Positions 26,142 to 26,300 of a DNA stretch of 64,000 nucleotides are shown here, one piece after another. Position numbers and translations under genes: made by a program. Every line of letters starts with the position of its first letter. Position 1 is the stretch's first letter. The stretch lies in NCBI RefSeq assembly GCF_056746865.1, contig NZ_CM163382.1. One strand, 5' to 3'. Under the pieces are notes generated by a model. It worked only from the letters and a program-made list of their open reading frames with translations, searched no databases and was not told the DNA's origin.

Positions 26142-26300
26142 TGACGCGTCTTATCAGGCCTACAAGTCCGTTGAAAATGCTGGTTTTGTAGGCTGGATAA
26201 GGCGTTCACGCCGCATCCGGCAGCCGTGCCCAAATGCCTGATGCGCCGCTTGACGCGTCTTATCAGGCCTACAATCCGTTGAAACTGCTGGTTTTGTGCG
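26142..26300. repeat. BIME/REP cluster: restored right half of the split REP plus at least two more REP units
   Basis: tgacgcgtcttatcaggcctac at 26142-26163, an inverted Y-type unit around 26180-26225, and a complete unit gcctgatgcgccgcttgacgcgtcttatcaggcctac at 26236-26272. Confidence 0.85.

Follow-up and report, generated by a model that had tools for sequence, protein, structure and literature searches.

A cluster of REP units interrupted by IS1397 at the convergent pepN-ssuB junction of Escherichia coli

Organisation of the pepN-ssuB junction

The stretch of DNA analysed here is 64 kb long; it is called the window, and all coordinates are given on its plus strand. Two E. coli genes, pepN and ssuB, lie on it in convergent orientation and share a spacer of 1641 bp. 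The coding sequence of aminopeptidase N, pepN, was located from the list of open reading frames at 22061..24673 on the plus strand (NCBIfam TIGR02414 pepN_proteo, 1257 bits), and its TGA stop codon (24671-24673, plus strand) lies 17 nt ahead of the first REP unit. The final gene of the ssuEADCB operon, ssuB, is found at 26315..27082 on the minus strand (NCBIfam NF008420, 495.7 bits). A preliminary description of this DNA had placed a REP cluster between the convergent ends of these two operons, and the NCBIfam gene models agree with this placement. At 30552-30720 the fimbrial operon elfADCG-ycbUVF of approximately 7 kb, which in K-12 lies between ssuE and pyrD, is absent, and the PyrD leader (Rfam RF02373, 30720-30793) begins about 70 nt beyond the region upstream of ssuE. 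At 57647-57731 the minus strand carries a tRNA gene of 85 nt (Rfam RF00005, 57.5 bits).

Motif and repeat analysis places the left (head) half of a Y-type REP unit, Y1, at 24691..24709 on the plus strand, with the sequence GCCTGATGCGACGCTTGAC. Its last four nucleotides (24706-24709) are the first copy of a TGAC target duplication. The insertion element IS1397 of the IS3 family follows, 1432 bp in length, at 24710..26141 on the plus strand. The right (tail) half of Y1, TGACGCGTCTTATCAGGCCTAC, occupies 26142..26163 (plus strand) and starts with the second TGAC copy (26142-26145). When IS1397 and one copy of TGAC are removed in silico, the flanks rejoin as GCCTGATGCGACGCTTGACGCGTCTTATCAGGCCTAC, which is a perfect Y-type REP unit. 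Y1 is followed by a tail-to-tail linker of 24 nt, AAGTCCGTTGAAAATGCTGGTTTT (26164..26187, no strand assigned), and by a REP unit of the Z(2) type at 26188..26222 (plus strand), located by motif scans and Rfam alignment, which reads GTAG first on the plus strand and is thus inverted with respect to the Y units. A head-to-head linker of 13 nt, GCCGUGCCCAAAU (26223..26235), which aligns to the 'l' linker of the REP325/naRNA4 unit, separates it from Y2, an intact Y-type unit at 26236..26272 (plus strand) with CTAC at its 3' end on that strand. The second tail-to-tail linker (26273..26295) is 96% identical to the first. The last element is a remnant of a Z unit, GTGCGCCACATCCGGCA (26296..26312, plus strand), in which the head arm stands alone and the tail arm is deleted; it ends 2 nt from the stop codon of ssuB.

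The order of the units along the plus strand is therefore Y> <Z Y> <half-Z, and the cluster consists of two tandem copies of a Y unit, the 24-nt linker and a Z unit, with the distal Z cut to a half-unit. The intact unit had been placed at 26236-26272 beforehand, and these coordinates are exact. At least three palindromes had also been reported, and the split, inverted and intact units are indeed present; the fourth element, the half-Z at 26296-26312, lies beyond the end of the region described and had been missed. Similarly, the split unit is real and its right half falls within that region, while its left half at 24691-24709 lies outside it, on the other side of the insertion element.

The properties of these elements are those of REP units. 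Y1 (rejoined), Y2 and Z are imperfect palindromes of 30-40 nt which form stem-loops. They carry the GTAG/CTAC foot and the Y/Z consensus, differing from the tail and head half-sites at no more than one position. They are extragenic, located between the stop codons of pepN and ssuB, and they are highly repeated: a 515-nt query containing the units matches a median of at least 31 places per E. coli genome.

Uniqueness in the window was assessed by Hamming scans for the two half-sites on both strands. The tail motif CTTATCMGGCCTAC, with up to two mismatches, has four matches in the 64 kb against 0.44 expected, and none of 100 shuffles reaches four. Three of its matches have 0-1 mismatch, 26150-63 (plus), 26188-201 (minus) and 26259-72 (plus), and all three fall within the cluster. 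The head motif GCCKGATGCGNCG is matched at 24691 (plus), 26209 (minus), 26236 (plus) and 26299 (minus). The scans found no other canonical REP unit in the 64 kb; the remaining half-site matches have 3-4 mismatches, which is the level of the shuffles. This was the scan that the preliminary description had asked for, and its statement that the cluster is the only one in the window is upheld. A weak REP-like string, CGCCGGATCAGGCA, occurs inside the pepN coding sequence at 23463-23488, with one mismatch to the head motif. It is present in K-12 as well and is most likely a chance resemblance.

Unit types and class of the cluster

The inverted unit had been called Y-type at first, which is wrong. 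It reads GTAGGCTGGATAAGGCGTTCACGCCGCATCCGGCA, which follows the Z pattern (GCCGGATG...) and not the Y pattern (GCCTGATG...). Y and Z2 sequences have been tabulated by Nunvar et al. (PMC2817692, Table 1), and the Z2 string of K-12 in this table matches the inverted unit. In addition, the pair formed by the Z unit and Y2, 26191..26269 on the plus strand, is a full-length match to the Z2-l-Y model of Rfam, RF02564 naRNA4 (model positions 1-77 of 77), scoring 76.2 bits where the gathering score is 59.5. The assignment to Z2 rests on this Rfam model and on the strings of PMC2817692, and not on a Z1-versus-Z2 consensus.

The REP325/naRNA4 system (Rfam RF02564) is the BIME-2 array of K-12 between yjdM and yjdN. 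The Z2-l-Y unit of the window aligns over the full length of its model and keeps both hairpins. However, there are six copies in REP325 and two here, the tail-to-tail motif is different, and the flanking genes are in tandem there and convergent here. The Z2-l-Y pair could give rise to a small nucleoid-associated RNA of the naRNA4 kind, able to bind HU and to help in condensing the chromosome. The match above the gathering score over the full length of the model is in favor of such an RNA, as are the HU binding and the effects on the nucleoid described for REP325 RNAs in PMC4550694. However, RF02564 in effect models the repeated BIME-2 unit, so that a match to it indicates membership of a sequence family and not a function. 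No promoter-like site was found in 24400-26600, and the function of naRNA4 is itself disputed, since the account of REP325 in bioRxiv 10.64898/2026.03.23.713779 gives it no role in compaction. A small RNA of this kind at the pepN-ssuB junction is considered extremely unlikely.

It is important to compare the cluster with the two main classes of BIME. According to PMC3333891, BIME-1 elements are single-copy combinations of y and z1 units joined by a long, conserved L linker, often with an IHF site, while BIME-2 elements are tandem arrays of y and z2 units with short, variable linkers and a copy number that varies. In the window, Y and Z2 units alternate in orientation, and the tandem copies vary between strains, with two copies here, one in A30, three in SCPM-O-B-8794 and none in K-12. 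Canonical BIME-2 elements have a short S linker between tails and an s, l or r motif between heads. At pepN-ssuB the linker between heads aligns to 'l'. The 24-nt tail-to-tail linker is specific to the locus: E. coli genomes have a median of two occurrences of it, both at pepN-ssuB. It is unlike the two tail-to-tail linkers with which it was compared, that of REP325 (17 nt) and that of the gloC-aspC pair of K-12 (35 nt). Because it matches neither, membership of BIME-2 is by resemblance. The earlier identification of a BIME was correct, as Y and Z units alternate and two tandem copies are present; judged by its sequence, the cluster may be described as BIME-2-like, and 'atypical BIME' would be an equally possible name.

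The E. coli Y/Z units known from BIME-2 elements and atypical BIMEs (Gilson, Bachellier, Hofnung; PMC3333891) are the same imperfect palindromes of 35-37 nt with a GTAG/CTAC foot. The alternating orientation, the tandem copies that vary between strains and the extragenic location at operon ends are also the same. Two features distinguish the present cluster from them: the locus-specific 24-nt tail-to-tail linker, and the last Z, which is a half-unit fixed beside the stop codon of ssuB.

The alternative class, a BIME-1 (RIP/RIB or RIP-type) element whose linker binds IHF, was considered because linker 2 contains a sequence, TTTCAACGGATTG (26272-84, minus strand), one mismatch from the IHF core WATCAANNNNTTR; it is the single such match in the cluster. 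The long linker of the K-12 gloC-aspC pair likewise has a core, ATTCAAAATATTG, with a mismatch of this kind. However, the window as a whole has 49 IHF-core matches with one mismatch against 50.8 expected by chance, and linker 1 has more mismatches than linker 2. The match cannot be distinguished from chance, and the reading of linker 2 as an IHF site was rejected. The architecture is different too, since a BIME-1 is a single Y-L-Z1 with a conserved IHF linker, and the cluster is tandem with a 24-nt linker found nowhere else in E. coli genomes. This makes a BIME-1 element that binds IHF highly unlikely, and the IHF binding proposed in the preliminary description is unsupported, as the L linker of BIME-1 is lacking and the core matches are at chance level. 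Binding and cleavage of BIME-2 by gyrase were reported by Espeli and Boccard (1997), as cited in PMC1525189, and by analogy gyrase binding at the BIME-2-like cluster is plausible.

IS1397 within the first REP unit

The element inserted in Y1 has imperfect inverted ends of 25 nt, 24710-24734 and 26117-26141, which are 84% complementary. Many RefSeq copies that share 100% identity with it are annotated as 'IS3-like element IS1397 family transposase', and its transposase matches NF033516 transpos_IS3 with 300 bits. Full-length copies of IS1397 are carried by 1707 genomes. The transposase starts at the ATG at 24761, in the same direction as pepN, and the RefSeq annotation of the copies gives a programmed frameshift. 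The size of about 1.4 kb, the inverted ends, the transposase in two frames and the near-identity to named copies are all those of IS1397, and the element is assigned to it on these grounds.

IS1397 sits in the loop of Y1, at the center of the unit, and is flanked by the 4-bp TGAC duplication. According to PMC1525189, IS1397 inserts specifically into the REP units of E. coli and the specificity resides in the transposase. This was examined with eight IS1397 copies from different genomes, which represent six loci besides pepN-ssuB. In all six cases the element lies in the middle of a Y or Z unit, which it divides in two, and both orientations occur. The loci are near yfiE, after hybG, after tRNA-Pro, after yjdM (REP325 itself), between ybhJ and ybhC, and between nhoA and yddE. 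The target duplications at these loci range from 2 to 4 bp (GTTC, GAAC, GCCA, TTG, GTTT, AA).

A second insertion is found at the pepN-ssuB junction itself. In E. coli MLI121 a 99.2% identical IS1397 occupies Y1 in the opposite orientation, with a 3-bp TGA duplication (1069-2500 of the compared segment). The opposite orientation and the different duplication indicate that Y1 was struck at least twice independently. The insertion of IS1397 at pepN-ssuB is targeted and not accidental. The REP unit had been described earlier as a landing pad for an insertion sequence; the unit was the target, but this term understates the sequence-specific relation between IS1397 and REP units that is seen at the six other loci and in MLI121. 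The same 1432-bp IS3-family element is known from palindromic units (Bachellier et al. 1997; Clement et al. 1999; Wilde et al. 2001, 2003; in PMC1525189). The known insertions are in the same central loop of the REP unit with short duplications of 3-4 bp, and there is no substantive difference in the present case.

The left end of IS1397 forms a hairpin (24710..24761, plus strand; -24.1 kcal/mol, z -5.1), in which the Shine-Dalgarno sequence of the transposase gene, together with the first base of its start codon, is base-paired to the first 11 nt of the element. The 5' arm of this hairpin is present only on transcripts which enter the element from outside, in this case from pepN. It looks as if the hairpin would keep such transcripts from being translated.

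Alleles, stem-loops and the role of the junction

Allele-specific searches were carried out over 5426 complete E. coli genomes. The K-12 type, found in 3166 genomes (58%), has no REP unit; its spacer is 42 bp long and contains a perfect hairpin with a 12-bp stem. The uninterrupted two-copy cluster is found in 2063 genomes, and the cluster with IS1397 at the site and in the orientation of the window in 151. A one-copy form of the strain A30 type, consisting of Y and half-Z, is found in 16 genomes, and a three-copy form occurs in E. coli SCPM-O-B-8794 (6960-7262 of the compared segment). The comparison of unit numbers across strains, as proposed beforehand, thus gives 0, 1, 2 or 3 copies. Minor variants of the cluster include a 12-nt deletion in Y1 in one genome and an extra chimeric REP unit in MLI121. 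Strain H41 was considered as a rearranged allele and rejected, as it carries the IS-occupied allele.

The differences between cluster and hairpin genomes are not limited to the spacer. The last 40 nt or so of ssuB (window 26315-26360) are strongly different in the two groups, while further into the gene the sequences are nearly identical. The cluster and the hairpin are therefore alternative haplotypes and not the result of a simple insertion, and the polymorphic segment takes in the C-terminal codons of ssuB. Escherichia whittamii (1840-2030 of the compared segment) and Escherichia sp. E1V33 (2040-2230) likewise have two copies, arranged in the same way and with the half-Z next to the stop codon of ssuB. 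Since the cluster allele occurs in these two, it appears to be older than E. coli.

A reciprocal case is found within the same 64 kb. In K-12 MG1655 the gloC-aspC terminator region contains an inserted Z/Y REP pair with a 35-nt linker, which is BIME-1-like (MG1655 segment 19350-19470), while the gloC-aspC spacer of the window (15880-16000) has a plain hairpin terminator only. The RefSeq feature table of MG1655 lists no REP features at pepN-ssuB, nor at gloC-aspC despite the plain REP pair there. Because the table is silent also at this real pair, the absence of annotation was not taken as evidence.

Folding of the individual units shows which of them form stem-loops. The rejoined Y1 has a folding energy of -21.3 kcal/mol (z -6.6), while its left half alone has only -3.3 kcal/mol (z -0.5). 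The corresponding energies on the plus and minus strands are -18.7 and -15.1 kcal/mol for the Z unit and -16.2 and -17.0 kcal/mol for Y2. The z-values of the three folds (Y1 rejoined, Y2 and Z) range from -3.3 to -6.6. The intact units are thus stable stem-loops on both strands, at about -15 to -19 kcal/mol, and the half-Z remnant forms no hairpin alone (z -0.4). The uninterrupted spacer as a whole folds with -83.6 kcal/mol (z -5.0), and in it the units fold singly or Y pairs with Z into long hairpins. A match to mir-3130 (E 0.14, far under the gathering score) was rejected as an inverted Y/Z pair that folds as one long hairpin. A scan for intrinsic terminators gave none in the spacer, and no unit is followed by a U-run. 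The K-12 junction hairpin, a bidirectional terminator, is at the same place between the two stop codons and is likewise a strong stem-loop on both strands (-25.7 and -25.1 kcal/mol). It differs in being a single unique 12-bp stem in a 42-bp spacer which is not derived from a repeat.

According to bioRxiv 10.64898/2026.03.23.713779, REP units between convergent genes act as bidirectional terminators and as blocks to degradation. By analogy with such published work, the most likely role of the cluster at pepN-ssuB would be that of a stabilizer and terminator. The stem-loops on the pepN and ssu transcripts would block 3'-to-5' exonucleases and would partly stop read-through in both directions, probably with the assistance of Rho. 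The single hairpin with the 12-bp stem would play this role in the 58% of genomes without REP units here. The IS1397 transposase targets the center of REP units, and the element has inserted into the loop of Y1, the Y unit nearest to pepN, co-oriented with this gene. In the 3' UTR of pepN the first hairpin has thereby been destroyed, and the remaining cluster now lies downstream of the element. As a result, transcription of pepN can run into the co-directional IS1397.

The three parts of this explanation, a BIME-2-like cluster, stem-loops acting at the 3' ends and a REP-targeted insertion of IS1397, are taken together very probably correct. What counts against them, besides the lack of U-runs and of an intrinsic terminator in the spacer and the deviating 24-nt linker, is that most E. 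coli genomes are without the cluster and that the number of its copies drifts. Selfish, neutral DNA would fit this as well. In that case the cluster would be a repeat that the REP-associated tyrosine transposase, or else slippage and recombination, had spread and amplified, with no selected role at this junction; it would persist where it is harmless, and IS1397 would use it as a safe extragenic site. The polymorphism speaks for this, both in presence (3166 genomes without; 2063, 151 and 16 with) and in copy number (one to three), as do the REP pair that K-12 has and the window lacks at gloC-aspC and the degenerate units, namely the half-Z, the 12-nt deletion and the chimeric extra unit of MLI121. 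TnpA-REP is described in PMC3333891 as cleaving and recombining BIMEs in vitro. However, genomes with the alternative allele have a strong hairpin in precisely this position, suggesting that some stem-loop is needed, and other Escherichia species have kept the cluster together with its locus-specific linker and half-Z. A purely selfish or neutral repeat is thus a possibility to be held tentatively. It is important to note that the selfish-DNA view and a local function are not mutually exclusive.

The stem-loop explanation with targeted insertion involves well-described biology from 1984-2012 that is already known, and its importance beyond the correct annotation of the junction is slight. A further proposal is unlikely, namely that the two haplotypes are long-lived, the array being already present in E. 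whittamii and a cryptic Escherichia clade, and that both are maintained because each gives pepN and the sulfonate operon its own kind of 3'-end processing. If it were true, the junction would be a natural 'dial' on expression at the level of strains, and IS1397 would be a third state, in which the pepN-proximal hairpin is removed and the read-through-proof left end of the element is placed after pepN.

The junction nevertheless provides a textbook example, at one site, of REP/BIME copy-number polymorphism between strains, in which a REP cluster and a unique hairpin are interchangeable occupants of one convergent junction. It also exemplifies how IS1397 targets REP units by their sequence, with two independent insertions here, and the occupied form marks one lineage of 151 genomes. 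The set of alleles, with 0, 1, 2 or 3 copies and with or without the insertion element, could serve as a natural series for the study of 3'-end tuning by REP units.
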